From assembly GCA_016201735.1 (NCBI GenBank), contig JACQCH010000017.1:7910-71909 (forward strand): 64,000 bases of DNA, read 5' to 3'. The notes beneath the pieces are model-generated. The model was not told where the DNA came from. It was given only the letters and a program-made list of their open reading frames with translations, and searched no databases. Shown piece after piece: positions 35,721-58,199 of this stretch (positions are counted from its first letter, which is position 1; every line of letters starts with the position of its first letter). The translations under genes and the position numbers were made by a program. The DNA comes from Candidatus Omnitrophota bacterium. Its GTDB lineage: Bacteria; Omnitrophota; Gorgyraeia; 1-14-0-20-64-10.

Positions 35721-35790
35721 CCGTTCGTGCTGAGCCTGTCGAAGCACGAACCTCCATTAGTTCACCCTTCGACAAGCTCAGGGTGAACGG
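35721..35790. repeat. 70-bp nested-palindrome REP-like element occupying the lspA-lgt intercistronic gap
   Basis: CCGTTCGTGCTGAGCCTGTCGAAGCACGAAC ... TTCACCCTTCGACAAGCTCAGGGTGAACGG; two hairpins that are also mutually complementary; same family as 1078..1110 and 52932..53009. Confidence 0.6.
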
Positions 35791-44784: not shown

Positions 44785-45705
44785 TTGAAGATGCGGATCT
44801 GCTCCCTCCTCCCCACCGCCACCGAGATGCTGTACGCCCTGGGGCTAAGCCGTTCCGTCGTCGCCCGAAGCCAGCACTGCAGTTATCCACCCCAGGTCCG
44901 GGCGAAGCCCGTCGTCGTGACGAGCCGCGTCAAGAAGATCGCCAAGCAGGACAGTTTCGCCATTCACCAGGCGGTCCTCAAACTCCAGCAGGAGGGAGTC
45001 CACCAATTCCAGATCGATCTGCCCGCCTTAAAGCGTCTCAAGCCGGACTTGGTGATCACCCAGAATCTCTGCTCCGTCTGCGCCGCTCCTCATCCGGAGG
45101 TTTCCGCCGTTCTGCAGCATCTCTCCCCTCGCCCCCGGCTGATCTCCATCAACTCCCAGCGGCTCGATGAGATCTTTACCGAGATCCGGAAGCTTGGAGA
45201 AATGACCCATCGGGAAAAAGCAGCAATCCGCTTGACGCACCAGCTTCAACAGCGGATCGACCGGGTCCGGCAATTGGTCTCTCGAACCTCCTACCGGCCC
45301 CGTGCCTGGGTCTGCGAGTGGCTGGAACCGCTGATGGCGGCCGGCCATTGGATCCCGGAGATGGTGGAGGTGGCCGGCGGCGTCGATGGGCTGGGGGTGA
45401 AAGGAAAGGATTCCATCTGGCTGAATTGGGAGCAGGTGCGCCGCTACGATCCGGAGGTGATCGTGGTGATGCCCTGCAGTTACTCAATCTCCCAAACCCT
45501 GCGGGAGAAGAAGCGGCTCACCCAGCGCCCCGGCTGGAAATCTTTATCCGCGGTGAAGCAAGGAAGGGTGTTTGCCCTGGAAGGAAGCTTCTTCCATCAC
45601 GCCGGGCCTCGCCTCGTCGACGGGATCGAGCTCCTGGCCCACCTGTTCCACCCGACCCAAGTCCCCGGAAATTCCCTCTGCCGTCATTACCGCGCATTGA
45701 CCTAA
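44785..45705 (+). CDS. class III periplasmic-binding-protein-fold protein (BtuF/FecB-like ABC substrate-binding domain)
   Basis: 306 aa; PDLVITQNLCSVC and EVIVVMPC motifs typical of cobalamin/siderophore binding proteins; no obvious signal peptide. Confidence 0.55.
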   Translation: MKMRICSLLPTATEMLYALGLSRSVVARSQHCSYPPQVRAKPVVVTSRVKKIAKQDSFAIHQAVLKLQQEGVHQFQIDLPALKRLKPDLVITQNLCSVCAAPHPEVSAVLQHLSPRPRLISINSQRLDEIFTEIRKLGEMTHREKAAIRLTHQLQQRIDRVRQLVSRTSYRPRAWVCEWLEPLMAAGHWIPEMVEVAGGVDGLGVKGKDSIWLNWEQVRRYDPEVIVVMPCSYSISQTLREKKRLTQRPGWKSLSAVKQGRVFALEGSFFHHAGPRLVDGIELLAHLFHPTQVPGNSLCRHYRALT

Positions 45706-46373
45706 TTGGGCTCCAATCCCTTGGCAAGCGTTTCACGCCACTCGTTGAAAAACCCCTGCAGCTCCTGGAAAGGAATCGGTTCCAAGAGCCACAGCATTTC
45801 GGGCATTTCCTCTTTGAAGGTTTTGATCCGCTCCAACGCTACCGCAAGCCAATAAGAATCAAAACCGGGATCCTTTCTTTTGGCATTCTCCATCAGCTCG
45901 TTTGGCTGAAAGCCCCCCTTCTTGACCAAAACATAGAGGTCGATGAAATCTCTCAAGGCCGCTCGGCCAAACAAAGCCAACAGTTTATTGGAAGCGATGT
46001 CCACCAGACTGTCCACTTTCAGGCGCGGATATTCCGGAAACTCCTTGACCGGCTCAAACCGAAAAGGGGCGTCCTGGGCCAGTTGGATCAACGTGGACTC
46101 GCCGGATCGCTCAACGAATAGTTCGACGAACGAATGGAGACCCCTCTGGCGCTCAACGGAAATCCCTTTGGCTCTAAGCACTCCCTCTAGTCGACGACTG
46201 AACGGCTCAACCAGCTCCTCCGTCACCGTGAAAAAGTCCAGATCCTGACTCTTCCGATGGTGAAGGTAAAACTGCGCCAAGGCGGTCCCACCCGTCAGAT
46301 AAAATTGTTCGCTTTCCTGGATGGATGGGAAATTTCGAAGGATAAAATCTTGAATCTTACTGATGACCTGCAA
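45702..46373 (-). CDS. nucleotidyltransferase AbiEii/AbiGii-family toxin (type IV TA / abortive infection, DUF1814)
   Basis: 223 aa; FYLTGGTALAQFYLHHRKSQDLDFF hallmark; lower GC than flanking chromosome. Confidence 0.75.
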   Translation of the reverse strand: MQVISKIQDFILRNFPSIQESEQFYLTGGTALAQFYLHHRKSQDLDFFTVTEELVEPFSRRLEGVLRAKGISVERQRGLHSFVELFVERSGESTLIQLAQDAPFRFEPVKEFPEYPRLKVDSLVDIASNKLLALFGRAALRDFIDLYVLVKKGGFQPNELMENAKRKDPGFDSYWLAVALERIKTFKEEMPEMLWLLEPIPFQELQGFFNEWRETLAKGLEPN

Positions 46374-46623
46374 GGAAATCTTCCCAAAACATCCGCACCT
46401 CCGTTGGAAGGAAGGGGTTCACTCTTCGAATCGACTCGCGCAGCCGATTCCACGGAAGCGTCTTGAGCAAATCCCGGACATCTCCCAGCCGGCCCCGAGT
46501 CAAGACCTGCTGGACGAGAAGATCCGCCTGGGGCGGATCGTCGAGATCGATCCGCGCTCCTTCCCGAAGGAACCAGAAGAGGCGTTTGTGCGGCTGATAA
46601 TCCCGTGGCATCTTAAAGTTCAC
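46357..46623 (-). CDS. putative cognate partner/antitoxin of AbiEii (short, unclassified)
   Basis: 88 aa, overlaps AbiEii start by 17 nt, co-directional; no recognisable wHTH so assignment weak; antisense ORF 46363..46713 is an alternative. Confidence 0.3.
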   Translation of the reverse strand: MNFKMPRDYQPHKRLFWFLREGARIDLDDPPQADLLVQQVLTRGRLGDVRDLLKTLPWNRLRESIRRVNPFLPTEVRMFWEDFLAGHQ

Positions 46624-46669
46624 ACTCCCATGTCGGAGTGTATCACATTCGAGGAAAGACAGGAAGGCG

Positions 46670-49600
46670 TTACGCGAAGATCAGGAGGGCCTCGCCGAAG
46701 TCCCCCCCCTTGAAGAGGCGATGGAGCACCACGATCGAGCCCGGCTCCAACAGCCCCTGCTTCTGTAAATATTGAAGCAGCCCCGCAGTTACTTTAGAAG
46801 CGGTCTGATCATTGACTTGAATCAGCACTTGATCCCGCCGAATTGAAACATTATCGCCCCCAATCACAATCGCCGCTTCCTCCAGAGTCTTCGCCCATCT
46901 AATCAACTTCTTGTCAATCGCATCGTGAAGCCCCGGGGTCACCTGGCCCAACCACCCTTGCTGCACATAGACCGGAACCTCCGTGCCAACGAATGCCTCT
47001 TCAAGCACTGCCGGCGGAACCATCCGGGCGAGGCCCTCCCGATATCCAGCATTTTCTGCCAGCTTCGAAAGGCCGTCGAATTTATCCGCGACATCCACCA
47101 CCCGTTGCGGATCGATCAGATATAGCAGGGTATCGGCAATGACCCGCCGGGCTATGAATTCGTTCAACATATCCCGGGCCTCCTCCGCCGTCGGCGGCGC
47201 CGCCAGCGCCGGCACCGGCGCTTCGGTCTTCTTCACCTCCTCCATCCCGGCGCGCAAGCCAAACTCCCTTGCCACGTCTGGAGCAAACCTTAGTACCTCC
47301 TCTTCAGAGAGCCGAGTAAGACTCCCATTTCTCATAATACGGGCATATTCGGGTAAGAAGCTATTCTGCGGATTGAGATATTTAACGTAGACATCGCCCC
47401 TTACCGTGAATGCGCTCACATTGTCCAGAGAAATGTGCCGCCCCAAATCCAAGAAGTGGACTTCCAAATACCCATCGTCCCCCGGTTTAGGTTTACCAAG
47501 TCGGAATTCCATGCCGGGGCGATTTTCAGGTGCGTCCATGTATGCAGTCTTGAGATGGGATTCCATCGCCGCACGCTTCATGATGCCCAACTCCTGCCTC
47601 ATCTGAGCATCAAGAGATTCCTCGGCAACTTCGGTTATGCCTTTCCTTGTAATACGCAAATAGACGGGAGTATAAGCTCGTTTGGGATCAAGACGTCGCA
47701 CATAAACGTCTCCGCCAAACGACGTAAAACCCGTCACTTTCGTCAACCTGTTTTCCTTCCCAATATCCTTTTGGTGCACATAAAGAAGCTCTGCGGATTC
47801 TACCAAACTAAATGCGATTCCAAGACGGGTGTCCGGATGAACTCTATTTATCTGACGATCCAATTCGTTATAAGACATGCGAGTGCCCAATGGGGCGATG
47901 ACATCCCCACGCAGAAGGCCTACCGTCGGCGTTACTTCTGCCACGTCATCACTATCAACGAGATACTCCCTACTCTCAACCCTAAGTAAAACCTTCCTGC
48001 CGTCGGAACTCAGGCCTCGAACCACATCCCCATTGACAAGAAATCCTTTCGGCACACGCTCTTTGAATCCGATATCTCCCCGGCTGTTTGGATGTATCCA
48101 CTCGATGACATTGACATATCGACCCTTAGGATCTACTACATCAACCATCTTTGTCCCACCATCTCTTAATCTATGTGCCCTCAATCCGTACAAAGGATGC
48201 CCCTTGAGCTCTTGCTTGAGGCCACTGAACAGGTCAAATGCGGAACAGAGCACGTCAGCAGCATCGCGGGCCTGTTCGTCTGTCACGACAGGTTTGAACC
48301 CATCAAACGAAATAGGCACTGGAGTGAGAACCTGAGGAGGAACCCTGGCTGGTTCCGGGGTATGTGGCTGTGGAGTAGGCGTTGTTAACGCATCGTAACC
48401 GATCTTTCCAACTACCCCAGCAGCAGTCCCTAATACTGCCCCCACTGTCCCCACCAGAAGGTCCCGCCTCGTTAAGCCTCTTCCCTTTTTTCCCTCCTCC
48501 AGCCCGGCGGCGGGAGAAGGTGGTTCTTGCTCCCATTTAATCTCCGCTTCCTTAAAATCCATTTTGGCGACAAGCTGCGCTAAAACTGCTTTAAGGACCT
48601 TTTGAATATCTGGGGCAGCTTCCCATCGAGCGAGCCCCCATTCCTCCTTTGAGAAATCGTTGAGGATTGGATTGAATTCCTCGCCCAGCTCGCGACGGTG
48701 GTCAGGTGTAATCTTAAATTGATCCCAATTCATACCGATAAAAAGCCCCAGATCAAATGCGGATATGCCTTTCTCTTGAAATTTCTTTAACAATTTTTTC
48801 TCTGGCTCCTCCAGCCCGGCGGAAGTCTTCTTCTCAAATGGACCCGAAAGGAGTTTGATTTCAAGCTCTAGCTCATCCGGAAACGCGGGGGGAAGTTCAT
48901 TGACTTGAAATTGATAATCGGACAACCCGTCAGCGAGCAGGCGTTCCCTTACGCCATCCAGAACTGTGGGAACATTGGACCACCCCTGAATCGCCACAGG
49001 AACTTTAACCGCATCTCCCCTCTCCAAATCCAAAGCCCTCTTCGGAAAACCGACCAGATTGATGGTTGCCGCTTTACTCACGCTCTTAAGAATTCCTTCA
49101 GCCTTCTGCCATGCCTGTTGTGGAGACAGCCCCCCCTCCAACTCGGCGGCGCCCGGTAGTCGATCGTTGTAGAGAATCATGGCCAGAGCAAGGGCATCTT
49201 GCCTCACGTCAACAATTCCACGGAGATCCAGTTCCAATCCTCTCCGTGTGAAAGCATACGACAGCGTTACTGAATCGCCCTTGATATCCTCCGTGGGTTT
49301 CTTGATGTCTAGATAGAGTAATGCGCCATCCGGACCTACGGATCCGTGGAGAGGTATTGTGTCTGACATCGTTATTAGATCCGCCATCTCTCCTATTCCC
49401 CTAAAAACGGCTTCAATCCTCTTTATGTTGCCCTTGACAACGGGGTCGTCAGCGCGCGTGGGATCTGAAGCTAGTTGAGCTCTAAGGACCTCAAGCCGGG
49501 ACGCAGCCTGAGTGATTGCCAAAGCCGTTCTTTCCAGCCCGTTGAGCTGGCGATTCATGAACTCGTAGGAGCGGTGATTGACTTGCGGGGAAAGTCTCTC

Positions 49601-52600
49601 CCTCTCTTTGCTAAGTGCAGTTTTATCCGATTCCTCCCGAATTGACCGGATCGTTTTCTCCAGCTCATTGAGCCGTCCGTTCAATCGCCCTGCAAGATTT
49701 GTGCGTAATCTTTCCATGTCGGCTAGAAGATTCCGCCCTTCTTGAAGTAAACGTCCAGCATCCTCATGGGTCATATTCTCTCCGGACAAATCCTGCCACA
49801 AGGCATTCGCCCTCGGAGACAACTTCTTGGCTTCGTCCGCCCCCGTTATGATCTCATTCGACGAATGGATCTGTGCCATGAGAATTTGAAGGAATTCCCG
49901 CAGGTCCGGATTAACAGGACGAGGCAGATCAGAAACTTGGCGAAGTTCCTCTATTTCGCGCCGAGGAAGGAAAACCCGTGCCCCAGATCGGCCCTCTTCT
50001 CGTATCAACAATCCTTTCTCAGGAATAGATTGGAATGCAACGTGCTTTCTCGAGATATGTTGAGGAGCTTCAACTCCCAGGAGTCCCGGTTTACTGCTCT
50101 CGCCTCTTCCAAAACCAAACTTCCCTTCAGAATCAAAAGGGATCATCCCTTCCCCTATTTTTCTCGGATCTGCGAACCAGAAGCCGCCCTTTCCATCCCA
50201 GGCGAGAATTCCCTGGATTAAACCGTTCGGTTCAATAGGGTTTTTATCTATACGATCTGTTACGACATAGACCGTGATTGCCCCAGGTTCTCTCAAGGCG
50301 TTCGGGGAAATAAGAATTCCTCCACCCGGAACTCCAAGAAGCTTCCTCTCTTCAACCCGATTTTTGTAATCGAACATGAGTGAGCTTCCCGTCACTCTAG
50401 ATTCCACTTTCTCGACCTTTCGATAGGTCTTCTGGACCAAACCGTCCAAGTCCAAGTCGGCAAGCTCCCTGGTCTCTTCCAGCCCAGCGAGATTGTTCTG
50501 GACAAACCAGACGTCCGATTCCACCTCCGCCGTGGTGATCTGCGTCCCATCCAGGAACCTCACCTCCGTCTCGCCTCCCTCCATCGGGACTGAATAGCTG
50601 ACAATCCGGACCGCGTCGTCGGGTCCCCTCACCCGATCCCCGCCGCGCAAATTCCTCAGATCTGGCCCCGTCAGCGCCTTCCACTGCTCTAACTCCTCCA
50701 TCCCGGCGGCGGTACGAGTACCCCAGGACCGCAACCCTTCCCGGACAGCGTAGAGGAACGTAAGGAATTCTGATGATTTCCGAGAAGGCAGGTTCTGTCT
50801 TTCTTTACCTATCTCCCGCAGGATTAATCCGTTGATCTTTAAGAGAACCGGATCGGTACTGAGATCTACGACTTGGCGATCGATATAATGTTTAAAAAGG
50901 AGGTCGCCTACTTCCCTCGCCAGATCCTCCCTTGCAGAATCCTGGACGAGACCTCCGAGAGAACGAGACGCTACCAACCGGTCTACAACATGATTCCGGA
51001 GTGCCTCTCGATCGGAGGTCCATTGCAATCCTCTCCGGAGTGACTCCATTTGGTTATCATCAAGAAAAACATCACCGCGAATGGGCTGCAGGCGGATTGC
51101 ATCTCCATCCTGCGTGATCTTCATTACCTTTGTCTTCTTAACTGTAAGAGTGCTTCCACTCTCCTTAAAAGGTTGGCGTTCCTCCTCTCCGGATTCATTT
51201 GTGGATACAAGATCAAAGCCGCTGCCGTTCCACTGAAGGGTAACCATCTGCATGCCCGGTATCTCGATCATCAGACCCCTCGTCAACTGGGCCGCAGCAA
51301 CTCCGGCAACTGGGATTCGCAGTCCACCCTTAGGAACCTGCGCCTGCTTAACAACAGTCCCATACTGCAACACGGTTTTCTTCGAAGCCGTCCGGAACCA
51401 TGCCGCGAATTCCTCTCCAGCGGCACCAAACAACTTCCGCTCAGGAGCAGTCCCTTCTGCTTGAATCCCAATTTCTTCAATCTGTGATTGAATCGCCTTA
51501 GGGGTACTGAGGATAAGAACGGGTTTCCCACTTTCTCCATCGGGCTCATGCCTAACCATGAATAATCTGGGTATCTTATAATCCCTACCACTATTCAGGC
51601 TCCTTTTCTTGCCCTTGGAATTTGAAAGCACAACCTTTCTATCTTTACCCTCGGCAAGTTTAAAGCGCGCCTCCTTCCCGGGCTGGCGCGCGGCAAGATT
51701 CAAGGGCCCTGACAGAACGACGGGCATCCTTACCTCTTCTCCCGACTTGAATCGAAATAGGATGCGCTCGCCAGGTTGCAGGCGGATGGGCCCCTCAACA
51801 ACGCCAAACGAACTTTGGTCGGTTATCTTTCCAGAAAGGATGAGCTCTAACAACTTATAGCGGCTCACCACGAACCGCACCTGCCCGTTCTCTCCCGGAA
51901 CCTTCATCTCCGCCAGTTGCCCAGGGTTAACACGGTGTAAAGCCGCAAGGTATAAATCGGCGGTCTTGTCTCGATAAACGGCCCCGTCAACCGGTTTCCT
52001 TTTTTTACGAAGTTTTTGGATATCCGCGATAACTTGCTCCGCCACCTTGCGCATATCACCGTTGCCCAGGCCGGACTTCGCAAGGCGGTCCAACGCCTTC
52101 TGCACATCTCCGCTCTCAGCTTTACCCAGCAAGGTCTTAACCACCGCCGCGCCAGCGAGTTCGGCAGCCAGTTCTTGAGTCATTATCCCTCCAGATCCGC
52201 CAATACGTGAATCGGCCCACTCTCTGGAGAAATTCTTTGCCGCTGCAAAAGGATGATGTCGATTCGACAAAGCAATAATCAAGGCGACTTTTTGCCATGA
52301 AAGCTGGCTCATGATCTGCGAATAAGCTCTTTCCACTCGTGCCTTTTCTTCTGGAGTCACTCGAGTGCCCGTCGTGAGTTTGAATTGAAGGACCTGGTAA
52401 GCTCCAATAACAGCCATCTCTCTTTTTAACCTCCCCCACGCTGCCTCGAGCTCCGCATCGGTTGGCTGCACGAATCTTCTGAGAACTTTCAAGGAGGGGG
52501 CCTTAAATGTTCCCCCTTCCATGCCGGCGGCGGGGGCGGAGTTCGGGGCGGCGCCGAGGGCTTTTTCGAGTGCTTCGAGACCGGCTTCCTGCTGTTTGAT

Positions 52601-52720
52601 TTCATTGGGACGCAGGGCGAGGGCGGAATTAGGCAAGGCAAGGCATAGACTTAGGAAAAGGGCCAAAATTCTGGGATAAAAAAATAGTTTCTGACTCATG
52701 AAATTTCCTTTGTACCTCAA
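46670..52720 (-). CDS. giant (2016 aa) orphan secreted protein with internal Tat-like/TM segment; no recognisable catalytic domain
   Basis: Sec signal MSQKLFFYPRILALFLSLCLALPNSALA|LRP; long mixed alpha/beta region; coiled coil ~aa 1100-1210; GRGLTRRDLLVGTVGAVLGTAAGVVGKIG then Pro-rich linker (~aa 1520-1570); C-terminal ~450 aa with internal duplications (GDVYVRRLDPKRAYTPVYLRITRKG / GDVYVKYLNPQNSFLPEYARIMRNG); DNA ~50% GC vs ~65% surroundings. Confidence 0.7.
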   Translation of the reverse strand: MRYKGNFMSQKLFFYPRILALFLSLCLALPNSALALRPNEIKQQEAGLEALEKALGAAPNSAPAAGMEGGTFKAPSLKVLRRFVQPTDAELEAAWGRLKREMAVIGAYQVLQFKLTTGTRVTPEEKARVERAYSQIMSQLSWQKVALIIALSNRHHPFAAAKNFSREWADSRIGGSGGIMTQELAAELAGAAVVKTLLGKAESGDVQKALDRLAKSGLGNGDMRKVAEQVIADIQKLRKKRKPVDGAVYRDKTADLYLAALHRVNPGQLAEMKVPGENGQVRFVVSRYKLLELILSGKITDQSSFGVVEGPIRLQPGERILFRFKSGEEVRMPVVLSGPLNLAARQPGKEARFKLAEGKDRKVVLSNSKGKKRSLNSGRDYKIPRLFMVRHEPDGESGKPVLILSTPKAIQSQIEEIGIQAEGTAPERKLFGAAGEEFAAWFRTASKKTVLQYGTVVKQAQVPKGGLRIPVAGVAAAQLTRGLMIEIPGMQMVTLQWNGSGFDLVSTNESGEEERQPFKESGSTLTVKKTKVMKITQDGDAIRLQPIRGDVFLDDNQMESLRRGLQWTSDREALRNHVVDRLVASRSLGGLVQDSAREDLAREVGDLLFKHYIDRQVVDLSTDPVLLKINGLILREIGKERQNLPSRKSSEFLTFLYAVREGLRSWGTRTAAGMEELEQWKALTGPDLRNLRGGDRVRGPDDAVRIVSYSVPMEGGETEVRFLDGTQITTAEVESDVWFVQNNLAGLEETRELADLDLDGLVQKTYRKVEKVESRVTGSSLMFDYKNRVEERKLLGVPGGGILISPNALREPGAITVYVVTDRIDKNPIEPNGLIQGILAWDGKGGFWFADPRKIGEGMIPFDSEGKFGFGRGESSKPGLLGVEAPQHISRKHVAFQSIPEKGLLIREEGRSGARVFLPRREIEELRQVSDLPRPVNPDLREFLQILMAQIHSSNEIITGADEAKKLSPRANALWQDLSGENMTHEDAGRLLQEGRNLLADMERLRTNLAGRLNGRLNELEKTIRSIREESDKTALSKERERLSPQVNHRSYEFMNRQLNGLERTALAITQAASRLEVLRAQLASDPTRADDPVVKGNIKRIEAVFRGIGEMADLITMSDTIPLHGSVGPDGALLYLDIKKPTEDIKGDSVTLSYAFTRRGLELDLRGIVDVRQDALALAMILYNDRLPGAAELEGGLSPQQAWQKAEGILKSVSKAATINLVGFPKRALDLERGDAVKVPVAIQGWSNVPTVLDGVRERLLADGLSDYQFQVNELPPAFPDELELEIKLLSGPFEKKTSAGLEEPEKKLLKKFQEKGISAFDLGLFIGMNWDQFKITPDHRRELGEEFNPILNDFSKEEWGLARWEAAPDIQKVLKAVLAQLVAKMDFKEAEIKWEQEPPSPAAGLEEGKKGRGLTRRDLLVGTVGAVLGTAAGVVGKIGYDALTTPTPQPHTPEPARVPPQVLTPVPISFDGFKPVVTDEQARDAADVLCSAFDLFSGLKQELKGHPLYGLRAHRLRDGGTKMVDVVDPKGRYVNVIEWIHPNSRGDIGFKERVPKGFLVNGDVVRGLSSDGRKVLLRVESREYLVDSDDVAEVTPTVGLLRGDVIAPLGTRMSYNELDRQINRVHPDTRLGIAFSLVESAELLYVHQKDIGKENRLTKVTGFTSFGGDVYVRRLDPKRAYTPVYLRITRKGITEVAEESLDAQMRQELGIMKRAAMESHLKTAYMDAPENRPGMEFRLGKPKPGDDGYLEVHFLDLGRHISLDNVSAFTVRGDVYVKYLNPQNSFLPEYARIMRNGSLTRLSEEEVLRFAPDVAREFGLRAGMEEVKKTEAPVPALAAPPTAEEARDMLNEFIARRVIADTLLYLIDPQRVVDVADKFDGLSKLAENAGYREGLARMVPPAVLEEAFVGTEVPVYVQQGWLGQVTPGLHDAIDKKLIRWAKTLEEAAIVIGGDNVSIRRDQVLIQVNDQTASKVTAGLLQYLQKQGLLEPGSIVVLHRLFKGGDFGEALLIFA

Positions 52721-52931
52721 GTATATCCTCCCGATGGGGCCGTGTCAATATCCTGAGAAAAGTCCTCTGTAACTCCTTTGTTCGCAGGGGGTTGTTTAAA
52801 CAAGATATGCGTTACCGCTAACTAAAAGCCAATTTCACGCCTAGTTCCGTAACTCCGCAGAAACGCTGTAACGTATTGATAGACAGAGGATAGAAATACG
52901 GTGAATGAGGCACCCGTTTTCTTGAGCGTCT

Positions 52932-53009
52932 CCGTTCGTCCTGAGCTTGTGGAAGGACGAACATTTGTACTCGGTTCCGTTCATGGTTCGACAAGCTCAC
53001 CATAAACGG
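52932..53009. repeat. nested-palindrome REP-like element upstream of giant gene
   Basis: CCGTTCGTCCTGAGCTTGTGGAAGGACGAAC ... CCGTTCATGGTTCGACAAGCTCACCATAAACGG; family shared with 1078..1110 and 35721..35790. Confidence 0.55.
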
Positions 53010-53045
53010 TTTGCGGAGCTAAGGAAGCAGGCGTGAGCCAATTTT

Positions 53046-54272
53046 TCATGGCAACAAAGAGAAAAAACGGTCGGCTCCCATCACATAAAGGTCCTTTGCT
53101 TTCTGCACGCAGAGTCCTTTTTGGTTGACGATCTGGAGTGCCAAGTCGGCTTGCGTCTTCTCTTGAAGAAAAGAGAGACTCTTCGACAGGGAGGTTTCCG
53201 CCTCCTTGGTCTCAACAAGAAGCAGGACTTTATTTCGGTTGGTTACTGCGAAGTCTACCTCCTGACCATCCTTCGTCCTCAAATAATGGAGCTTAAAAGG
53301 ACCTTTCCCTGTCTCATTCCAATGCGCCACGGCGCGCTGTAATTGAACCGCAACGAAATTCTCGAAACGGGCTCCCCGAGAGGTCGCCATCCCCCAATCC
53401 CAAAAATACACCTTCTCCTCTTTAAGAACAGACCGAGAAAGACGTGAAGTCCAGGGAGAGACCGAAAAGATGAGATAGACCATCTTCAACGCCTCCAGCC
53501 ATGACCGGATCGAACCGTGGGCGGATTCCAACGGCTGGCGCAGCGCATTGAGGCTTAGCGGGGAACCCACCCTTTCCGGAAGCAGATAGAGCAGGGTTTC
53601 GAGTTTTCTGACATGGACGATCTTTGTGAGGTCCCTTAGATCCTCCTGCAGGATAAGAGAGATGTAGTTGTCCCGCCACCGGTTGCAAAAAACCTGCGTT
53701 CCGACGGCGAACGGTTCCGGATAGCCCGTCAGGTTAAGCAGACTCTTCAATACTTCATGGACTTGAGAACCGGCGGTTGGAACCGACTTGATTTTCTCTT
53801 CCGGGTTCCATCCATCGGACTTTGGGATGTTGGGAAGAACCTCCCGGATCCCGAGCGGCAGCATCTTAAAAAGGAAGTAACGGCCCACAAGGCTGTCGCC
53901 CGATTTTCGAAAAAGATCTAGGCGAGCGCTGCCCGTAACGATAAACCGGATTTTCTCCCGCCACTCATCATAATACCCTTTGATGAGATTCTTCCATTCG
54001 GGATACTTGTGGATTTCGTCTAAAGCGACCCAGGGCCTGGGAAGCTCCGGCGGGATATCCTCGATGAAAAAATCCGGCTTCGCGGCAAATCGCCTCTTGA
54101 CCGTTGGGGTATCCCAGTTGTAGTAAAGATGGCGCTGCCCTTGCTCGCTCAAAAACCGCTGAACCGCTGTGGTCTTCCCGATCTGTCGAGGCCCAGAAAT
54201 GAACGACATCCGTCCCTGCAAGGCCGCTTCGGAAAGGGCGGTGTGAATCACCTGGCGGCTGAAATATCTCAC
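53046..54272 (-). CDS. AAA+ ATPase, AAA_14 + DUF4143 family (COG1373)
   Basis: 408 aa; Walker A ISGPRQIGKTT, Walker B ...VALDEIHKYPEW; low-GC DNA. Confidence 0.75.
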   Translation of the reverse strand: MRYFSRQVIHTALSEAALQGRMSFISGPRQIGKTTAVQRFLSEQGQRHLYYNWDTPTVKRRFAAKPDFFIEDIPPELPRPWVALDEIHKYPEWKNLIKGYYDEWREKIRFIVTGSARLDLFRKSGDSLVGRYFLFKMLPLGIREVLPNIPKSDGWNPEEKIKSVPTAGSQVHEVLKSLLNLTGYPEPFAVGTQVFCNRWRDNYISLILQEDLRDLTKIVHVRKLETLLYLLPERVGSPLSLNALRQPLESAHGSIRSWLEALKMVYLIFSVSPWTSRLSRSVLKEEKVYFWDWGMATSRGARFENFVAVQLQRAVAHWNETGKGPFKLHYLRTKDGQEVDFAVTNRNKVLLLVETKEAETSLSKSLSFLQEKTQADLALQIVNQKGLCVQKAKDLYVMGADRFFSLLP

Positions 54273-54330
54273 ATGTCTATTTTATACATCAATCGAAATT
54301 AGTCAAGTCTATTTTACATACCTATGAAAA
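54273..54330. repeat. AT-rich imperfect direct repeat (TCTATTTTATACATC / TCTATTTTACATACC) at right edge of low-GC island
   Basis: Seen directly immediately upstream of the AAA ATPase gene at the composition boundary. Confidence 0.3.
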
Positions 54331-54343
54331 ACAGCCATACCTC

Positions 54344-54715
54344 CTACTGATCTTCCAGTGCCCCTTCGAGGCGGCCGACCAGAAGGTCCACCCGGAGGCC
54401 GTGGGCCGAGCGCAGATGGATCTCGAAATCGGTACCGGAGGGCTCCACTCCCAACAATCCACCCAAAGGAGGCTTGGCATCGTACTCCTCCCAGATCGAT
54501 ATCCCCTTCACATGGGAAATGGTCAGCCGGCACGGGACCCAGTCCTGCCGGGTTTTCCGGAAAAGGCCGGCTCCTTTGAGCGAGTCGGCGGGCGGCCGGG
54601 CGGTTTCCAGAATAAAAACCGGGCCCGGCTCCCAACAGCAATTGGCCCGGTCAAAATCAGATTCCGCAAGAATTTCTCCGACCTTCTTTAATTGTTCAAG
54701 ATTTTGGAATTCCAT
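54344..54715 (-). CDS. hypothetical protein
   Basis: 123 aa, high GC, no recognisable motif. Confidence 0.3.
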   Translation of the reverse strand: MEFQNLEQLKKVGEILAESDFDRANCCWEPGPVFILETARPPADSLKGAGLFRKTRQDWVPCRLTISHVKGISIWEEYDAKPPLGGLLGVEPSGTDFEIHLRSAHGLRVDLLVGRLEGALEDQ

Positions 54716-54732: not shown

Positions 54733-55686
54733 CTATTCACCCAGGTCCAACAACATGCACTTGACCGCCCCGCCTCCCTTTTCCAGAAACTCCGACACAT
54801 CGACCGGACACGGGACGACGCCCAAGGAACGGACCTTCTCGTACAGCGCCTCGGTGAGGCCGTCGGGCATCAGAAGGAGACGGGTTGTCTCGCCGTGATA
54901 CCGGGTCGAGATCTGGAAACTGTTGGCGGCAAAGTTCCGGCCGTCCGGATCGCTTAAAGGGACCAGGCGGCTGCCGAAGCGGCGGCGCAGGACGGCCTGG
55001 GAATCTTTAGACAGGGCGTTTAAGTAAACCAGAAGATGCTCCCGGTGAGGGCCGAAGGAATACAAGACGGTGTCCCCGTGGTAATGGGCCTCGTTGACCA
55101 GATCCAGCGGCAGGACCTCTCGCGGCTGGACGATCGATTCCAGGAGCGGCAAGGTCCGCCGATCCGACCGGAATCCGTAGACCCGCCGGTACGGGGGAAT
55201 CCCGAACCGGAAGGCCCATTTCTGCCGCTCGACCGGCCCGCAGGTAAACAGATAAACCGTCTTGGCCGGGTCGCCGGAAGGATCTCCCACTGGAATGAAA
55301 TCGGCCTCCCCCTCGAAGGGCAGCGGCCTCTCGAAGGGATCCGGCGAGGGAATGTCCCGAATCGAAAATCCCAATGAATCTAAAATTTCACGGTAATATT
55401 CCCGTTCCCCGGCCCGGCCGGGATTCAGGTTGCTTAGATAGAAGGCGTCCCCATGTCGGAAACCGGCGTTGGCCGGGAAAACAAGCCCTGGCAGTCCTGG
55501 ATCCGGAGGGACAACATGAATCCGGACCCCATGACTTTCCAGCACCGATTTTAACTGGAGCCATTGGGCGACCGCCTTTGGAAGATCCACCTTCTTGCGG
55601 CGGCCCCAGGAATCCCGGGTGTGGGGGTTGGCGCCGGAGCGGATCCGGAAATGAGTCGGGTCTCCGAGAAGAACCTGCTGCGCCAT
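54733..55686 (-). CDS. amidinotransferase-superfamily hydrolase (DDAH/CtlX-like, C-terminal catalytic Cys)
   Basis: 317 aa; C-terminal EKGGGAVKCMLLDLG resembles DDAH/arginine deiminase superfamily catalytic Cys loop. Confidence 0.5.
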   Translation of the reverse strand: MAQQVLLGDPTHFRIRSGANPHTRDSWGRRKKVDLPKAVAQWLQLKSVLESHGVRIHVVPPDPGLPGLVFPANAGFRHGDAFYLSNLNPGRAGEREYYREILDSLGFSIRDIPSPDPFERPLPFEGEADFIPVGDPSGDPAKTVYLFTCGPVERQKWAFRFGIPPYRRVYGFRSDRRTLPLLESIVQPREVLPLDLVNEAHYHGDTVLYSFGPHREHLLVYLNALSKDSQAVLRRRFGSRLVPLSDPDGRNFAANSFQISTRYHGETTRLLLMPDGLTEALYEKVRSLGVVPCPVDVSEFLEKGGGAVKCMLLDLGE

Positions 55687-55702
55687 CAGAACCGGCAGGC
55701 CA

Positions 55703-57193
55703 CTAAAAGGGAAGCGCCCGTTTGTTGAGTGGCCGGGTATCCTTCAAGACCGCCACCGGAACCGTGCAGTAGTAAGGGGAGAAGAGCCCAGCCGGTTTGA
55801 AGGAGCCGCTGGCCTTGGTGCCGCCGAAGGGAAGTTTTCCCGACGAGAAGATCGTTCCCCGGTTCCAGTTCACCATCCCGGTATCAATTCCCGGCAGGAG
55901 GCGTTCAAAAGTTTTTCGGTTCCGGGTGAAGACGGCGGTGATCAGCCCGTAGGGAACCTCGTTGTTGATCGACACGGCTTCATCGTTTCCTTTCGCCAGA
56001 TAGACGGCCGCGTCCGGCCCGAAGATCTCCTCCCGACGGTAATGGACGGACCGGTTCTTCGCCGGCCGCTCGCACAAATGGACGCTGGGGCTCACATAAT
56101 AGCCGCGCCGCTTGCCCCAACTGCCCAGCGCTTTCCCGACCCGGAGGGTCTCGTATCCTTCTTCCTCAGCCAGCTTCATGTACTTCTGGAACTTGGCCAC
56201 CGCGTCATGACTGACCAGCGGGCCCATCAAGACCCCTTCCTCCAATGGATAGCCCACCTTGACCTGGTTCGCCACCTTAAGGAAAATCTCCAGGAACCTC
56301 TTGGCGACCCGCCGGTCGACGACGACGCGGCTGGTCGCGTTGCACCGCTGTCCCGCCATGGAGAACGCGGCGACCGCGATTTCCCGGGCGGCCAGTTCCA
56401 GATCGGCGTCCGCTAAAACGAGGGCGGCGTTCTTCCCTCCCATCTCGAGGGCAAGGCATTTCTGCGGCTCCTTCAACGTCACCGCCTTGATCGCCTGCCC
56501 CGTTGCGGTGGAACCGGTAAAGAGGACCCCGGCCACCTTCGGATGGCCGACCAACCGGGTTCCCACTCCGCCGTCCCCCTGAACCAGATTGAAGACGCCC
56601 GGCGGGAAACCGGCCTCATCCAGAATCTCGGCAATCCGCTGGCCGACGAACGGGGTGTGCTCGGAGGGTTTGAAGACGATCGTGTTGCCGGTCAACAGCC
56701 CCGGGATGATGTGGCTGCCCGGCGTGTGGGCCGGAAAATTGAACGGCCCGATCACCGCCAAAACTCCCAGGGGCCGGTACCGGCACTCTCCCTTCACTCC
56801 GGGCGCCGTTTCGATGGAAAAGGGGCGGATGAGCTTTAGCCCCAAGTTCACCATCTCATCCACTTTGCCGATCAGCCGTTCCACTTCCCGGCGGGATTCC
56901 GTCAGCGGCTTGCCCGCTTCTTTGGCAATCAGACGGGTGAATTCCTCCTGACGCCCGGCTAGGATCCGCTGAAAAGATCGGAGCAGGCCGATCCGCTTAG
57001 AAAGGGACTGGCCCATCCATTTCGGAAACGCTTGTCCCGCCGCCGCCACCGCTTGATCGACCGGATCCGTTGAGAAAACAAGAGAACCGACCGGATCCAG
57101 AAGATCCCCGGGGTCCTCGCTGATCAGATCGGCCCCCTTCGAGGTCCGGACGAACCGCCCGGCGATGTAGTTACCTCGATAAAGGACAGACAT
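55703..57193 (-). CDS. NAD-dependent aldehyde dehydrogenase (succinylglutamate-semialdehyde / P5C dehydrogenase-like)
   Basis: Start MSVLYRGNYIAGRFV at 57193 with GGAGAAGG SD; ALDH motifs FTGSTATG, catalytic LEMGGKN / Cys region AGQRCNA. Confidence 0.8.
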   Translation of the reverse strand: MSVLYRGNYIAGRFVRTSKGADLISEDPGDLLDPVGSLVFSTDPVDQAVAAAGQAFPKWMGQSLSKRIGLLRSFQRILAGRQEEFTRLIAKEAGKPLTESRREVERLIGKVDEMVNLGLKLIRPFSIETAPGVKGECRYRPLGVLAVIGPFNFPAHTPGSHIIPGLLTGNTIVFKPSEHTPFVGQRIAEILDEAGFPPGVFNLVQGDGGVGTRLVGHPKVAGVLFTGSTATGQAIKAVTLKEPQKCLALEMGGKNAALVLADADLELAAREIAVAAFSMAGQRCNATSRVVVDRRVAKRFLEIFLKVANQVKVGYPLEEGVLMGPLVSHDAVAKFQKYMKLAEEEGYETLRVGKALGSWGKRRGYYVSPSVHLCERPAKNRSVHYRREEIFGPDAAVYLAKGNDEAVSINNEVPYGLITAVFTRNRKTFERLLPGIDTGMVNWNRGTIFSSGKLPFGGTKASGSFKPAGLFSPYYCTVPVAVLKDTRPLNKRALPF

Positions 57194-58199
57194 AGACCTT
57201 CTCCCCCACTTTAAGTTTGAGAAGCCGCAACGCCTCTCTGCTGACGAAACAGCGGCCCCGATCCACCTGGGCCCGAATCCGGACCGCTCGGAAGAAACCG
57301 CCCGCATCGGTCCCAACCAGAAAAGCAGGAGATTGCTTCGCCCTTCCAGGGCTCGCAATGACGGCGGCCTTCAGCCGGCGCATCTGGCGGATGAGCCGCA
57401 CCCGCCGGCGATCAGCACTGTAATAAGGCCCCCCGTCGAACGGCTCGATCTGCGCAAGCGCACGAAACCCAATTCCCCTTAAAAGTCCCGCGGCCCGCCG
57501 GGCGGCCGGATGAATGGCCCCGATCGCTTCCTGGACCGATTCCGGCAGGAGGGCGCAGTAGATCGGCTCCCGGGGAAAAAGATTCAGGATGAACTCCTTG
57601 TTCGTGACCGAGAGCCGGTCCGCCTTCTGATAAGGGAGCCCGGTGAAAACCCGGCCGACCGCCTCCCAGAAGGGACTCTTGTTCCCGGCTCCCATCGCCC
57701 CCCGGTATTCCACCAGGATTTTCCTCTCAAAGCGGTCTGGGTGGATTCCCATATAGAGGAAGCGGACATAAGAGATCTGGAGGCCGCAGACCTCCGGATG
57801 CTTCCGGTAGCCGGGGAGGACCACCAGCCCCCCCACCTCGGTCGGCCCATTGACCGTGTATCCCAACCGGAGGACCTGATGCGACCGTCGAATGCCCAAG
57901 GTGCGGCTCTGCTTCCTTATCTTTTCCAGCCCCAGCCAAAGATGCGGGCGCCCCGGTGTGCCATGTTTTCCGATGATCAGGGAACAGCCGACTAAGGTAC
58001 CGGGTACCGTTTTCCCCTCCAGAACGAAAAGATACTTCGCCTTCGCCTTGGGCAGCTTTCCGGCAAACGAGGCCTCGGAATCCCGGAGGAGCTGCCGGAT
58101 GTATCCCCGATCCGCCGGCAGATTGTAGGAATCCAGCAGTCTGGCCAGCTGGAAGAGGCCGGAGAAATCGGATGGACCCGCCTGCCGGATCAGGAACAT
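57171..58199 (-). CDS. astA: arginine/ornithine N-succinyltransferase (AstA/AruF family)
   Basis: 342 aa; family-level similarity (LFVLEGKT...GCSLIIGKHG, GNKSPFWEAVGRVF). Confidence 0.6.
   Translation of the reverse strand: MFLIRQAGPSDFSGLFQLARLLDSYNLPADRGYIRQLLRDSEASFAGKLPKAKAKYLFVLEGKTVPGTLVGCSLIIGKHGTPGRPHLWLGLEKIRKQSRTLGIRRSHQVLRLGYTVNGPTEVGGLVVLPGYRKHPEVCGLQISYVRFLYMGIHPDRFERKILVEYRGAMGAGNKSPFWEAVGRVFTGLPYQKADRLSVTNKEFILNLFPREPIYCALLPESVQEAIGAIHPAARRAAGLLRGIGFRALAQIEPFDGGPYYSADRRRVRLIRQMRRLKAAVIASPGRAKQSPAFLVGTDAGGFFRAVRIRAQVDRGRCFVSREALRLLKLKVGEKVYVCPLSR

Follow-up and report, generated by a model that had tools for sequence, protein, structure and literature searches.

A low-GC chromosomal insertion in an uncultivated Candidatus Omnitrophota bacterium encodes a modular protein from a family not described before

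We analyzed a 64-kb window of DNA, the whole stretch under study, from an uncultivated Candidatus Omnitrophota bacterium whose nearest relatives are Omnitrophota MAGs with 60-69% amino-acid identity. The original prediction of a low-GC island of about 8.6 kb is borne out by a sliding-window check, which shows that GC content is not uniform: segment 45706-54343 (8638 bp) has a GC content of 0.5216 compared to 0.6013 for the remaining window (52.2% against 60.1%), and it is the only part of the window with GC this low. Each of the eight 1-kb windows inside the segment (0.502-0.545) lies below the lowest of the 55 outside (mean 0.601, sd 0.022, minimum 0.554), and GC3 is 0.54-0.63 in the four segment genes versus 0.72-0.79 in flanking genes. 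The flanks themselves measure 60-66% GC rather than the 65-70% first estimated. All of the cargo genes lie on the minus strand, each with a promoter-like site of its own. The genes and boundary features are as follows.

44785..45705 (+): Peripla_BP_2 periplasmic binding protein gene, native left flank (Pfam PF01497, E 2e-27)
45702..46373 (-): AbiEii-type nucleotidyltransferase gene, toxin-like, 223 aa (PF08843, E 5e-17)
46357..46623 (-): 88-aa ORF, overlapping the AbiEii start by 17 nt
46670..52720 (-): modular protein with leader, junctions and C-terminal domain, a continuous 2016-codon ORF from TTG at 52720
52932..53009 (-): REP-like pair of inverted hairpins, 37 nt 3' of the AAA gene stop
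53046..54272 (-): AAA_14 + DUF4143 ATPase gene, 408 aa from GTG, 387 aa as called on Logan contigs
54273..54343 (-): AT-rich right boundary, 29.6% GC, with direct repeat and promoter-like site
54344..54715 (-): orf123, conserved hypothetical gene, native right flank, outside the insertion

Both predicted edges stand. On the left, the stop codon of the Peripla_BP_2 gene at 45705 overlaps that of the AbiEii gene at 45702, giving the sharp boundary at convergent stops that had been described; on the right, a promoter-like TTGACT-16-TAAAAT within the AT-rich stretch is framed by the two copies of the expected imperfect direct repeat, ATGTAAAATAGAC / ATGTATAAAATAGAC. Because orf123 is a native core gene, the island ends where it was first placed. 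Comparison with relatives shows that DDAH/orf123 directly adjoins the Peripla_BP_2 gene in seven related loci (L005, L006, L009-L012 and L038; Peripla_BP_2 orthologues 65-70% identical), where the proposed presence/absence check finds none of the four segment genes, and the segment is thus an insertion relative to those loci. Orthologues of orf123 in L003, L009 and L011 are 55-63% identical, those in L009 and L011 lying beside the Peripla_BP_2 gene. The AbiEii gene is missing from all related loci, and the AAA_14-DUF4143 gene is missing at this site in them. In locus L003, an 867-aa ORF sits between orf123 and the Peripla_BP_2 gene, which is exactly the same site.

The translation of the AbiEii gene contains GGTAL and DLD motifs, and plasmid homologues annotated as AbiEii/AbiGii toxin are 27-32% identical to it. 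When the segment's proteins were searched against PADLOC defence models, as originally suggested, this protein matched 21 AbiEii models (best E 7e-12) and the AAA_14-DUF4143 protein matched PDC-S01 over its full length (E 2e-61). No Pfam, PADLOC, NCBIfam or PHROG match was obtained for the 88-aa ORF at normal thresholds; its match to DUF6922 is weak (E 0.22), and it aligns with the C-terminal half of a 149-aa ORF from a Pseudarthrobacter plasmid (29% over 56 aa, pairwise E 0.001) that itself overlaps an AbiEii homologue. We therefore regard the 88-aa ORF as a putative cognate, antitoxin-like partner of AbiEii. Its assignment as AbiEi is rejected because it matches no AbiEi model, so that the AbiE toxin pair of the original prediction stands in its toxin-like half only.

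The ATPase has Pfam domains AAA_14 (PF13173, E 2e-28) and DUF4143 (PF13635, E 4e-25), and its translation contains Walker A (GPRQIGKTT), Walker B (ALDEIH) and D...ETK motifs. Since DUF4143 has been placed in the PD-(D/E)XK superfamily (PMC3424549), the protein is a candidate ATPase-nuclease. Downstream of this gene, the REP-like palindrome (31-nt arms, two hairpins, folding energy -39.8 kcal/mol, z = -2.75) has a second copy at 35723-35790 in native DNA, in which the loops are conserved (GAGCTTGTSGAA) and the stem changes are compensatory. The palindrome exists as predicted, but it lies 37 nt past the stop of the AAA gene and more probably belongs to the 3' end of that gene than to the promoter of the big gene, where it had been placed.

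The big gene probably starts at the ATG at 52699, giving 2009 aa; this ATG directly follows a promoter-like site, and gene calls on two Logan contigs give an identical 2009-aa product. Sequence searches of the protein against Pfam, PADLOC, NCBIfam, PHROG and PDB gave no match, residues 1-816 having been searched only with a word-indexed tool. Within and upstream of the gene we recognize the following elements.

52720..52748 (-): promoter-like TTGACA-17-TATACT (11/12, a consensus match only), then AAGGAA and ATG 52699
52571..52699 (-): conserved N-terminal leader, MSQKLFFYPRILALFLSLCLALPNSALA and then LRP..., followed by a degenerate first junction, AGLEA
52514..52528 (-): second degenerate N-terminal junction, AGMEG
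50693..50707 (-): junction 1, AAGMEE, GCC GGG ATG GAG GAG
50474..50488 (-): junction 2, LAGLEE, GCT GGG CTG GAA GAG
48806..48820 (-): junction 3, SAGLEE, GCC GGG CTG GAG GAG
48494..48508 (-): junction 4, AAGLEE, GCC GGG CTG GAG GAG, directly preceding the internal Tat-like/transmembrane segment
48398..48472 (-): internal basic and hydrophobic segment GRGLTRRDLLVGTVGAVLGTAAGVVGK (hydropathy scan), Tat-signal-like or transmembrane, then a Pro-rich linker
47225..47836 (-): tandem duplicated cassette of about 100 aa (aa 1629-1725 and 1731-1832)
47237..47251 (-): junction 5, RAGMEE, GCC GGG ATG GAG GAG, directly preceding the C-terminal domain
46673..47215 (-): conserved C-terminal domain, about 180 aa, ending ...GDFGEALLIFA

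AG[LM]EE occurs five times in frame in this protein against 0.013 expected (Poisson P 3e-12) and, outside it, in none of the six frames of the 64-kb window. Every such junction is encoded by a near-identical 15-nt in-frame repeat; its glycine codon is GGG in 5/5 cases, and GGG makes up 32% of Gly codons. The two copies of the duplicated cassette are 36% identical (E 7e-12, as an internal repeat). The C-terminal domain is predicted to be a confidently folded alpha/beta domain (AF2 pLDDT 94) with no match in PDB, Pfam or NCBIfam. The leader, which has a hydrophobic core at residues 11-37, combined with the RR-flanked internal hydrophobic segment, implies a topology not cleanly satisfied by one uncleaved chain, which hints at processing.

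Although the protein had been called an orphan, it belongs to an undescribed, lineage-internal multigene family defined by a conserved Sec-type leader, unrelated cassettes bounded by junctions, and the C-terminal domain of about 180 aa. An exhaustive HMMER search gave 48 representatives; in about 45 of these, similarity is confined to the C-terminal 180 aa, which invariably form the end of the protein. The leader consensus is RFLAL..LALPxPAFALRP, and the layout of leader, GLEE, spacer and AGxEE recurs in 17 family leaders. GxEE is found 107 times in 45 proteins against 16 expected, the variable residue being L, A or M in 98 instances and alanine preceding the glycine in 81, and the resulting consensus (P)-x-A-A-G-[L/A/M]-E-E bounds the modules. 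In relatives, the junctions coincide with boundaries between unrelated domains: each of the domains GATase, Metallophos, GNAT, WD40, abhydrolase, PP2C and Response_reg is confined to one inter-junction segment. Cassettes also recur at different positions in different proteins, homologues of the cassette of about 100 aa being present in P0002, P0022 and P0048, although shared cassettes are only 27-36% identical and so document no recent exchange event. In P0023, the junction codons are GCC GGC GCG GAG GAG in 8/9 cases, with GGC in 9/9.

Different family members occupy one chromosomal site in different genomes. The leader of the window protein is 50% identical over 66 aa to that of the 867-aa ORF in L003, and the leader HMM detects this ORF (E 6e-17) together with L044 (6e-19), L047 (5e-17) and L012 (4e-8). 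Moreover, the L003 ORF has low GC and four AGLEE junctions with the same codons as the window gene. The HMM does not find the C-terminal domain in L003 or L012, and the same-locus argument therefore rests on leader and junctions. A second site, after the fab operon, likewise carries different cargo in L044 and L047. Family genes sit among housekeeping genes and have GC below their flanks in three other genomes, wherever this was checked.

These observations bear on the original proposal of a horizontally acquired defence or surface-variation island, which in its strict form holds that the whole 8.6-kb segment is recently acquired foreign DNA transferred as one unit. The sharp drop in GC and GC3, the absence from seven related loci, the presence of AbiEii and a PADLOC candidate defence gene, and the AT-rich boundary with direct repeats are all in its favor. 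We nevertheless consider recent import of the whole unlikely. No integrase or transposase was found in the segment, as had been stated, nor any tRNA, flanking repeat or target-site duplication, and there are no phage-family matches or viral relatives. The tetranucleotide check proposed as a sign of foreignness points the other way, the GC-normalized signature of the segment correlating with the rest of the window at r 0.83-0.86, inside the native range of 0.77-0.93. Given this native signature, the copy of the genome's own REP-like element, the family's nativeness to the lineage (with low GC as a family trait) and the member at the same site in L003, the main cargo is better explained by something other than recent foreign import. 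What survives of the proposal is the composition, the absence from relatives and the two conflict-type genes, and "surface variation" comes close to the appearance of the big gene. We instead interpret 45706-54343 as a lineage-specific variable locus rather than a classical mobile island, at which AbiEii with its small partner and the AAA_14-DUF4143 ATPase may have accumulated as independent conflict- or addiction-type genes at one hotspot.

Together with this view of the locus we propose that the big gene encodes a hypervariable, exported modular protein, a combined account that is, if narrowly, the probable one. The protein would be exported or membrane-inserted via its leader, and the junctions would be functional joints, most likely recognized by a processing protease specific to the lineage, which would release the modules from what would be a bacterial polyprotein. 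Junction DNA may also act as microhomology for in-frame gain, loss and exchange of cassettes, and rapid cassette turnover would explain both the orphan modules and the low GC. These roles of the junctions, in cleavage or cassette exchange, are inferred. In line with processing, modules begin like independent exported proteins, with RRxFL and a hydrophobic stretch 5-15 residues past junctions; a basic/hydrophobic segment also follows junctions in P0006, P0013, P0029, L003 and L012, and one post-junction segment of L012 passes the Pfam UCR_Fe-S_N TAT-signal model (28.9 bits, cutoff 24). Against it, the excess of hydrophobic segments just past junctions is modest (9/34 versus about 15% expected), conserved Cys, His or Ser residues that could make the C-terminal domain the protease are lacking, and no protease, dedicated transporter or other conserved neighbor was found beside family genes. 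The 15-nt repeat is also short for RecA-mediated exchange.

The 2016-aa product might instead be a single uncleaved multi-domain membrane or periplasmic protein in which AG[LAM]EE is merely a favored linker or helix cap, the identical junction codons stemming from internal duplication rather than recombination or processing; taken jointly, these suggestions are possible but doubtful. The Pro/Ala-rich stretch upstream of the motif is typical of linkers, no protease was found, and a preprint describes long multi-domain proteins that carry signal peptides and transmembrane helices and stay uncleaved as the Omnitrophota norm (10.64898/2026.06.07.730766). The modules around the junctions are mutually unrelated, however, and duplication does not explain junction codons that are identical where the modules share no sequence. 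Furthermore, the glycine and both glutamates of the motif are invariant in 106 sites, far beyond the needs of a linker, and other lineages use different, equally rigid motifs after the same cassette, one shared cassette being followed by RAGMEE, SAGAEE, LGARLT or VQGMAERF depending on the protein. Internal Tat-type signals past junctions would also make little sense in an uncleaved chain. An extremely unlikely alternative is that junctions are internal translation signals, with GGAGGAG as a Shine-Dalgarno sequence and modules translated separately from one mRNA. GGAGGAG does occur in nearly all junctions, and the third junction residue is often encoded by ATG, CTG or GTG; in many members, however, alanine (GCG/GCC) is the residue most often found there, and GTA occurs as well, so this position is not a start codon. 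Inspection reveals no start codon at a constant 5-9 nt downstream, and the upstream module has no stop codon.

Unlike the polyprotein reading, a polymorphic toxin/effector system would make the small neighbors immunity genes and AbiEii, the 88-aa ORF and the AAA gene one system with the big gene. Conserved ends, variable modules and a short joint with conserved DNA do recall CdiA/Rhs proteins, and in three loci a family member has toxin-antitoxin-like neighbors: besides the window, these are L003, with a 156-aa nucleotidyltransferase-like ORF, and L041, with a DUF433/DUF5615 pair. Such a system is very improbable, though, given that searches turned up no domain of the toxin, pretoxin, RHS, PAAR or filamentous haemagglutinin types, that relatives carry signalling or metabolic cargo domains rather than nucleases or deaminases, that the neighbors differ at every locus, and that the segment genes have separate promoter-like sites.

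Several known systems resemble parts of this locus. In MARTX (multifunctional autoprocessing RTX) toxins of Vibrio and relatives, conserved termini flank heterogeneous effector modules, the repertoire varies between strains via recombination, and modules are freed by cleavage at short inter-domain sites. RTX repeats, a cysteine protease domain (Peptidase_C80) and a T1SS signal are, however, not detected in the window protein, its leader is Sec-like, its junction motif and C-terminal domain are unrelated, and cleavage is only proposed. In polymorphic toxins (CdiA VENN, Rhs PxxxxDPxGL), a short motif conserved in protein and DNA marks off exchangeable modules, variable parts fall below host GC, and alleles at one locus differ in cargo. 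Unlike CdiA/Rhs, the window family has many modules in series between two conserved ends, no recognizable toxin/immunity pair, and cargo domains that are not typical toxins. As in viral polyproteins, independent units in one chain are separated by a short rigid motif that differs by lineage; here, however, the gene is cellular and chromosomal, and neither a protease module nor any viral relative was found. The left-hand gene pair resembles AbiE type IV toxin-antitoxin/abortive infection systems (AbiEi + AbiEii) in its AbiEii domain with GG[ST]AL and DxD motifs and in its two-gene arrangement with the upstream ORF overlapping the toxin start. It differs in that the upstream ORF is 88 aa, lacks the AbiEi winged-helix domain and resembles only the C-terminal part of an uncharacterized actinobacterial plasmid partner. 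The ATPase is like PADLOC candidate PDC-S01, a single-gene AAA_14 + DUF4143 protein (COG1373), in its Walker A/B motifs and PD-(D/E)XK-type C-terminal domain, a sequence likeness to a gene that is only a defence candidate without demonstrated mechanism. Finally, long or giant Omnitrophota proteins have an N-terminal signal peptide and/or transmembrane segments and many unrelated enzymatic or signalling domains (10.1101/2023.11.21.568195; 10.64898/2026.06.07.730766), and it has been proposed that they are cleaved after translation to yield several products, with the cleavage points stated to be unknown (West-Roberts et al. 2023, 10.1101/2023.11.21.568195). Those papers cover proteins of >10,000 aa and report no conserved leader, junction motif or common C-terminal domain; the window protein, at 2,016 aa, nevertheless shares with the giants their phylum, a long ORF and a modular build.

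The island at window positions 45706-54343 (8638 bp) has a GC content of 52.2%, compared to 60.1% in the remaining 55 kb. GC values for all eight 1-kb windows in the island (0.502-0.545) lie under the minimum of 0.554 found outside, where 55 such windows have a mean of 0.601 (sd 0.022). At third codon positions, the four island genes have a GC of 0.54-0.63 and the genes that flank them one of 0.72-0.79. On the basis of the 1-kb profile and the third-position values, the compositional drop proposed in the original prediction is real and well localized, although the flanks, which had been placed at 65-70% GC, measure 60-66%. The predicted gene map also matches ours, with all of the island genes being located on the minus strand:

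45702-46373, minus strand: AbiEii-type nucleotidyltransferase (ORF call and PF08843)
46357-46623, minus strand: 88-aa ORF (ORF call)
46670-52720, minus strand: 2016-codon ORF (ORF call)
53046-54272, minus strand: AAA_14 + DUF4143 gene (ORF call and Pfam)

At the left border, the stop codons of the AbiEii gene and the convergent Peripla_BP_2 gene overlap. The right border is a 71-bp stretch of 29.6% GC, in which the imperfect direct repeat reported earlier is present together with a promoter-like TTGACT-16-TAAAAT element.

Relatives were gathered by scanning with the flanking DDAH-like protein, one genome being kept per species. The closest of these are Candidatus Omnitrophota MAGs, some mislabeled as Planctomycetia, with amino-acid identities of at most 69%. 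Comparing all of the window proteins to the relatives' loci (tblastn) reveals a conserved backbone of AstA-like, aldehyde dehydrogenase and DDAH-like genes (and orf123), the convergent Peripla_BP_2 gene, and two alcohol dehydrogenases. DDAH or orf123 adjoins Peripla_BP_2 in loci L005, L006, L009, L010, L011, L012 and L038, and all four island genes are missing from these loci. Absence of the island from relatives is thus seen at seven related loci, with the caveat that these share 60-69% amino-acid identity and that L003, another related locus, has a related gene at the site. Since orf123 (54344-54715) is a conserved native gene, the insertion spans exactly 45706-54343. At the same site, L030 carries a small secreted protein and an M28-like peptidase, and L003 carries an aldo/keto reductase, a 156-aa nucleotidyltransferase-like ORF and an 867-aa ORF. 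The insertion site is a hotspot. In L003 (10909-12748), the aldo/keto-reductase-like gene, which has a Tat-like N-terminus, is located between DDAH and orf123, and the 156-aa ORF, with weak matches to DUF6036, NTP_transf_5 and DUF2204, is just upstream of the 867-aa ORF. The native right flank (54733-58199, minus strand) resembles an arginine succinyltransferase-type catabolic cluster (AstA-like, aldehyde dehydrogenase, DDAH/amidinotransferase-like), and is kept across Omnitrophota, Binatia and Deltaproteobacteria MAGs.

The original prediction regarded the island as horizontally acquired. Deviating composition and third-position GC, together with syntenic absence, agree with this idea, but mobility genes, an att site and a foreign tetranucleotide signature do not materialize. 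No integrase, transposase or recombinase in the island is matched by Pfam, scans of the window find no tRNA or tmRNA and match no Rfam family, and both the PHROG (phage-family) search and the viral scan are empty. Flanking direct repeats were considered as att sites and rejected, the repeat search having given no flanking pair. Moreover, the GC-normalized tetranucleotide correlation of the island (0.83-0.86) lies inside the spread of native 4-kb windows (0.77-0.93), and so the signature is not distinct from that of the host.

The 2016-aa protein encoded by the large gene (the window protein) had been described as an orphan. A word-indexed search of 5.8 billion proteins with its full sequence returns only the protein itself, and there is nothing in Pfam, PADLOC, NCBIfam, PHROGs or the PDB sequences. 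An identical copy of the gene is present in the Logan runs SRR12113409 and SRR12113410. Exhaustive HMMER with residues 817-2016, however, yields 48 cluster representatives and shows that the protein belongs to a family with 45 or more clusters and is no orphan. About 45 of the 48 representatives match the last ~180 residues only, always at their own extreme C-terminus, with phmmer E-values between this C-terminal domain and independent proteins being as low as 4e-25; the lengths of these proteins range from 121 to 2343 aa. Word-indexed searches retrieve two proteins with the profile of the C-terminal domain and six short fragments with that of the leader, and a metagenome scan using a narrower C-terminal domain alignment gives four short loci. 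Because word-indexed searching misses the family, its lack of homologs alone would have falsely upheld orphan status. Neither the leader nor the C-terminal domain is represented by an NCBIfam or Pfam model, and a literature search on the motif strings returned unrelated papers only, none of which mentions the motif.

The representatives begin with a leader (...RFLAL.L.LGLALPxPAFALR(P/Q)), followed by an early GLEE and then by many junctions, which are AG[L/A/M]EE motifs located between modules. In the window protein, AG[LM]EE is found at residues 673, 746, 1302, 1406 and 1825, these five copies comparing to 0.013 expected by composition (Poisson P 3e-12), and two degenerate junctions (AGLEA and AGMEG) are present near the N-terminus. 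Only 2 of 20,000 shuffles of the protein contain at least two copies, and the motif is absent from the rest of the window in all six frames. Across 45 proteins, GxEE occurs 107 times versus 16 expected, the variable residue being leucine (55), alanine (28) or methionine (15); the residue before the glycine is alanine at 81 of 106 sites, with proline overrepresented at -3 and -4. Each recognizable Pfam domain falls within one inter-junction segment, as seen for GATase, metallophosphatase and GNAT domains in representative P0009, WD40 in P0004 and P0023, an alpha/beta hydrolase in P0015, PP2C in P0040, and a receiver domain in P0011. When the proteins are split at the junctions, 140 modules result; the C-terminal domains group into a single cluster with 45 members, and most modules are singletons. 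A few cassettes reappear in different proteins at differing ordinal positions, with alignments that reach the module ends. These shared cassettes are 27-36% identical, and are old.

An HMM for the leader, built from 17 members that included the window protein, matches the ORFs of loci L003, L044, L047 and L012, all left out of the build, with E-values of 6e-17 to 4e-8, and has no further match over ~650 kb of the window and loci. The C-terminal domain HMM has no match to L003 or L012, and alignment of the C-terminal modules from the three proteins (window, L003 and L012) gives just 21-27% identity. As a result, the leader-plus-junction superfamily is wider than the C-terminal domain family, and the L003 and L012 proteins are, as judged by sequence comparison, tied to the window protein through leader and junctions only. 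The 867-aa ORF of L003, at the same chromosomal site as the window gene, begins with the leader that the window protein also has (here FFYPRILAL..LALRP; 66 aa at 50% identity), and has four AGLEE motifs with codons as in the window gene and a low GC content (0.49-0.56 versus 0.61-0.68 for its flanks). The 1659-aa ORF of L012 (14306-19285, plus strand), located just past the alcohol dehydrogenase pair, begins with a related leader and contains the motifs SGMEE, SGVEE, AGLEE and AGVEE, with RRxFL and a hydrophobic stretch being found within a few residues after each motif. One of these segments clears the Pfam UCR_Fe-S_N (Rieske TAT-signal) model at 28.9 bits (cutoff 24), and the L012 protein also has a weak TAT_signal match. 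This ORF resembles several Tat substrates fused in a single reading frame. In the window protein, the internal segment LTRRDLLVGTVGAVLGTAAGVVG may be compared to the Tat pattern S/T-R-R-x-F-L-K plus a hydrophobic region; it has no Pfam TAT match. Some short database members start exactly at the third residue of a junction (MEE... or LEE...), and may be fragments or genuine stand-alone units. In addition, P0043 is a 162-aa gene consisting of the C-terminal domain alone (L041/L042, 10001-10489), in the same MAG as L030, and adjoins a DUF433/DUF5615 toxin-antitoxin-like pair.

The C-terminal domain, modeled using AlphaFold2 with a 27-sequence alignment (A3), has a pLDDT of 93.8 and a pTM of 0.86. 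In the model, a helical N-terminal part precedes a flavodoxin/Rossmann-like alpha/beta sandwich, the ~180-aa domain ending in ...L(I/V/L)F(A/V). By comparison, a single-sequence model of residues 1404-2016 has a pLDDT of only 36. Foldseek against the PDB gives no E-value below 0.04, with TM scores below 0.36; members of the domain family have no meaningful Pfam match, and the profile finds none among PDB sequences. We also considered this domain as the processing protease. It is not an obvious one, and we rejected that role, because the alignment conserves no Cys, His or Ser and the fold matches are generic flavodoxin/Rossmann types. The domain is thus predicted to be confidently folded and is unclassified.

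The DNA of the junctions is more uniform than their protein sequence would demand. Repeat finding recovered the junctions independently as the direct-repeat families D1/D2, which are near-identical in-frame 15-nt repeats. Junction codons in the window gene are GCC GGG CTG/ATG GAG GAG, with GGG being used at 5/5 sites even though it accounts for 32% of the gene's glycine codons, and CTG at 3/3 compared to 21% of its leucine codons. In P0023 (locus L044), the junctions read GCC GGC GCG GAG GAG at 8/9 sites, with GGC at 9/9. The modules between junctions have no mutual similarity. Such near-identical codons are not explained by protein-level selection alone, and suggest that the joints evolve in concert or recombine, or that they are constrained at the nucleotide level. 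All of the strong junctions contain an in-frame, Shine-Dalgarno-like GGAGGAG, and these heptamers could cause ribosome pausing at module boundaries. Internal initiation at the junctions is unlikely: GTA and GCG/GCC are often found at the third position, where an NTG start codon would have to stand, and no start codon follows GGAGGAG at the consistent spacing of a working Shine-Dalgarno sequence.

Residues 1629-1832 of the window protein form a tandem cassette (internal repeat E 7e-12), which is also present in P0002, P0022 and P0048. The motif that follows its ...(E/D)FG(L/I) end is RAGMEE in the window protein, SAGAEE in P0002, LGARLT in P0022, and VQGMAERF in P0048, and the latter two have their own recurring motifs, [AT]AR[LM][AS] (six copies in P0022) and VKGMAExF (four copies in P0048). 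P0022 (2273 aa) and P0048 (1505 aa) carry this tandem cassette yet are without the leader or C-terminal domain. Joints that stay rigid in one lineage but differ between lineages are, we infer, what would be expected of a co-evolving recognition site, and motif-delimited modular proteins with lineage-specific dialects may be a wider phenomenon.

Family members in other genomes are found in housekeeping neighborhoods, and the loci examined have no accessory gene in common. The genes for the 2343-aa P0023 (L044, 8001-15032) and an 836-aa member (L047, 3782-6292) are both directly downstream of the fab operon in two genomes, and another is located between a CNNM gene and rsfS/argS. The L044/L047 pair is a second case of a conserved locus with exchanged cargo. 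Low GC is also seen for these genes relative to their flanks:

L044: 0.58 versus 0.64
L012: 0.57 versus 0.64
L003: 0.545 versus 0.63-0.66

A second copy of the REP-like double hairpin (52932-53009) is found at 35723-35790, the loops being conserved (GAGCTTGTSGAA and its complement) and the stem changes compensatory. Each copy follows closely on the stop codon of a gene on the minus strand, and the relatives' loci contain isolated REP loop matches only. This palindrome had been assigned to the promoter region of the large gene; given that it lies 37 nt past the stop codon of the AAA gene and ~185 nt upstream of the large gene's -35 element, and that the second copy also follows a stop codon, we consider a 3'-end role to be more likely. 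Taken together, the housekeeping sites, the low GC of the family, the native tetranucleotides and the second REP copy argue that the large gene is a resident member of a fast-turning-over family rather than an import. For annotation, this cautions that low GC and orphan genes in a region can reflect a native, fast-evolving gene family and not foreign DNA.

The other two components of the island are ordinary candidates of known kinds. The AbiEii protein matches PF08843 (E 5e-17, 63 bits versus a cutoff of 22.5) and the PADLOC AbiEii models, its translation contains GGTAL and SQDLDF motifs, and its plasmid homologs (27-32% identity) are annotated as AbiEii/AbiGii toxins. Its gene and the 88-aa ORF overlap by 17 nt (46357-46373) in a bicistronic arrangement. 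The 88-aa ORF has no match to AbiEi models in Pfam, PADLOC or NCBIfam, its only hit being DUF6922 (E 0.22), and it aligns at 29% identity (pairwise E 0.001) with the C-terminal half of a 149-aa Pseudarthrobacter plasmid ORF that itself overlaps an AbiEii homolog. Thus, of the AbiE toxin pair in the original prediction, the AbiEii nucleotidyltransferase and the overlapping arrangement are borne out, and a canonical AbiEi (winged helix-turn-helix, COG5340) is not; judging from these matches, this is an AbiE-like pair whose partner is non-canonical and probably minimal. The AAA_14 + DUF4143 protein matches the PADLOC profile PDLC04790 (PDC-S01) over its full length (residues 4-386, E 2e-61) and both PF13173 and PF13635, with Walker A, Walker B and D...ETK motifs being evident in the translation. 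DUF4143 is catalogued in the PD-(D/E)XK nuclease superfamily (PMC3424549). The PADLOC search finds the AbiEii models and PDC-S01 in a segment suspected of encoding defense functions, but PDC-S01 is itself only a candidate in PADLOC-DB, and the AAA_14-DUF4143 gene is likewise a candidate defense gene only. Toxin-antitoxin-like genes adjoin family members in L003 and L041 too. This is consistent with such genes accumulating at variable sites, though with so few loci no linkage can be claimed.

The variable locus, family membership, coincidence of junctions with domain boundaries, homogenized junction DNA, cassette sharing and different-cargo alleles at conserved loci are all supported directly. 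A tentative reading of these sequences, which we consider possible but on the doubtful side, is that AG[L/A/M]EE and its dialects are processing sites of bacterial polyproteins, with the junction repeats also reshuffling cassettes between alleles and paralogs. Export via the conserved Sec-type leader is predicted, with a cut after AxA (ALA|LRP). In the polyprotein reading, a lineage-specific protease would act on the single exported precursor at the junctions, freeing modules that might include several independent enzymes, regulators and membrane proteins. The apparent Tat or transmembrane start of some modules would be hard to square with a single uncleaved topology. A protease or transporter partner was not found beside the family loci examined. 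The junction repeats might also serve as in-frame recombination joints behind cassette turnover; 15 nt is short for homologous exchange, however, and the age of the shared cassettes, at 27-36% identity, speaks against recent exchange.

The island itself is ordinary, and it is the leader, junction and C-terminal domain family that is newly exposed. MARTX toxins, polymorphic toxins and viral polyproteins can be likened to the window protein by analogy, but their defining domains are not found in it by Pfam. Six segments of the window protein match no Pfam family of any kind at E-values up to 10, the glycine-rich RTX repeats and the internal cysteine protease domain of MARTX included, there is no pretoxin or toxin domain, and no conserved small downstream gene that might encode immunity recurs across the family loci compared. 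Omnitrophota are ultra-small, probably host-dependent bacteria that are notable for extremely long modular proteins. These proteins are the closest described, and their cleavage has been proposed without known sites, a gap that, according to one published analysis, blocks their dissection (10.1101/2023.11.21.568195). If the polyprotein reading is true, the junctions would be the first concrete candidate cleavage points for long or giant Omnitrophota proteins. The present family is compact and tractable (0.3-2.3 kaa), with a rigid motif at each domain boundary, a dedicated leader and a folded C-terminal domain, and so makes polyprotein status and cargo diversification directly testable.
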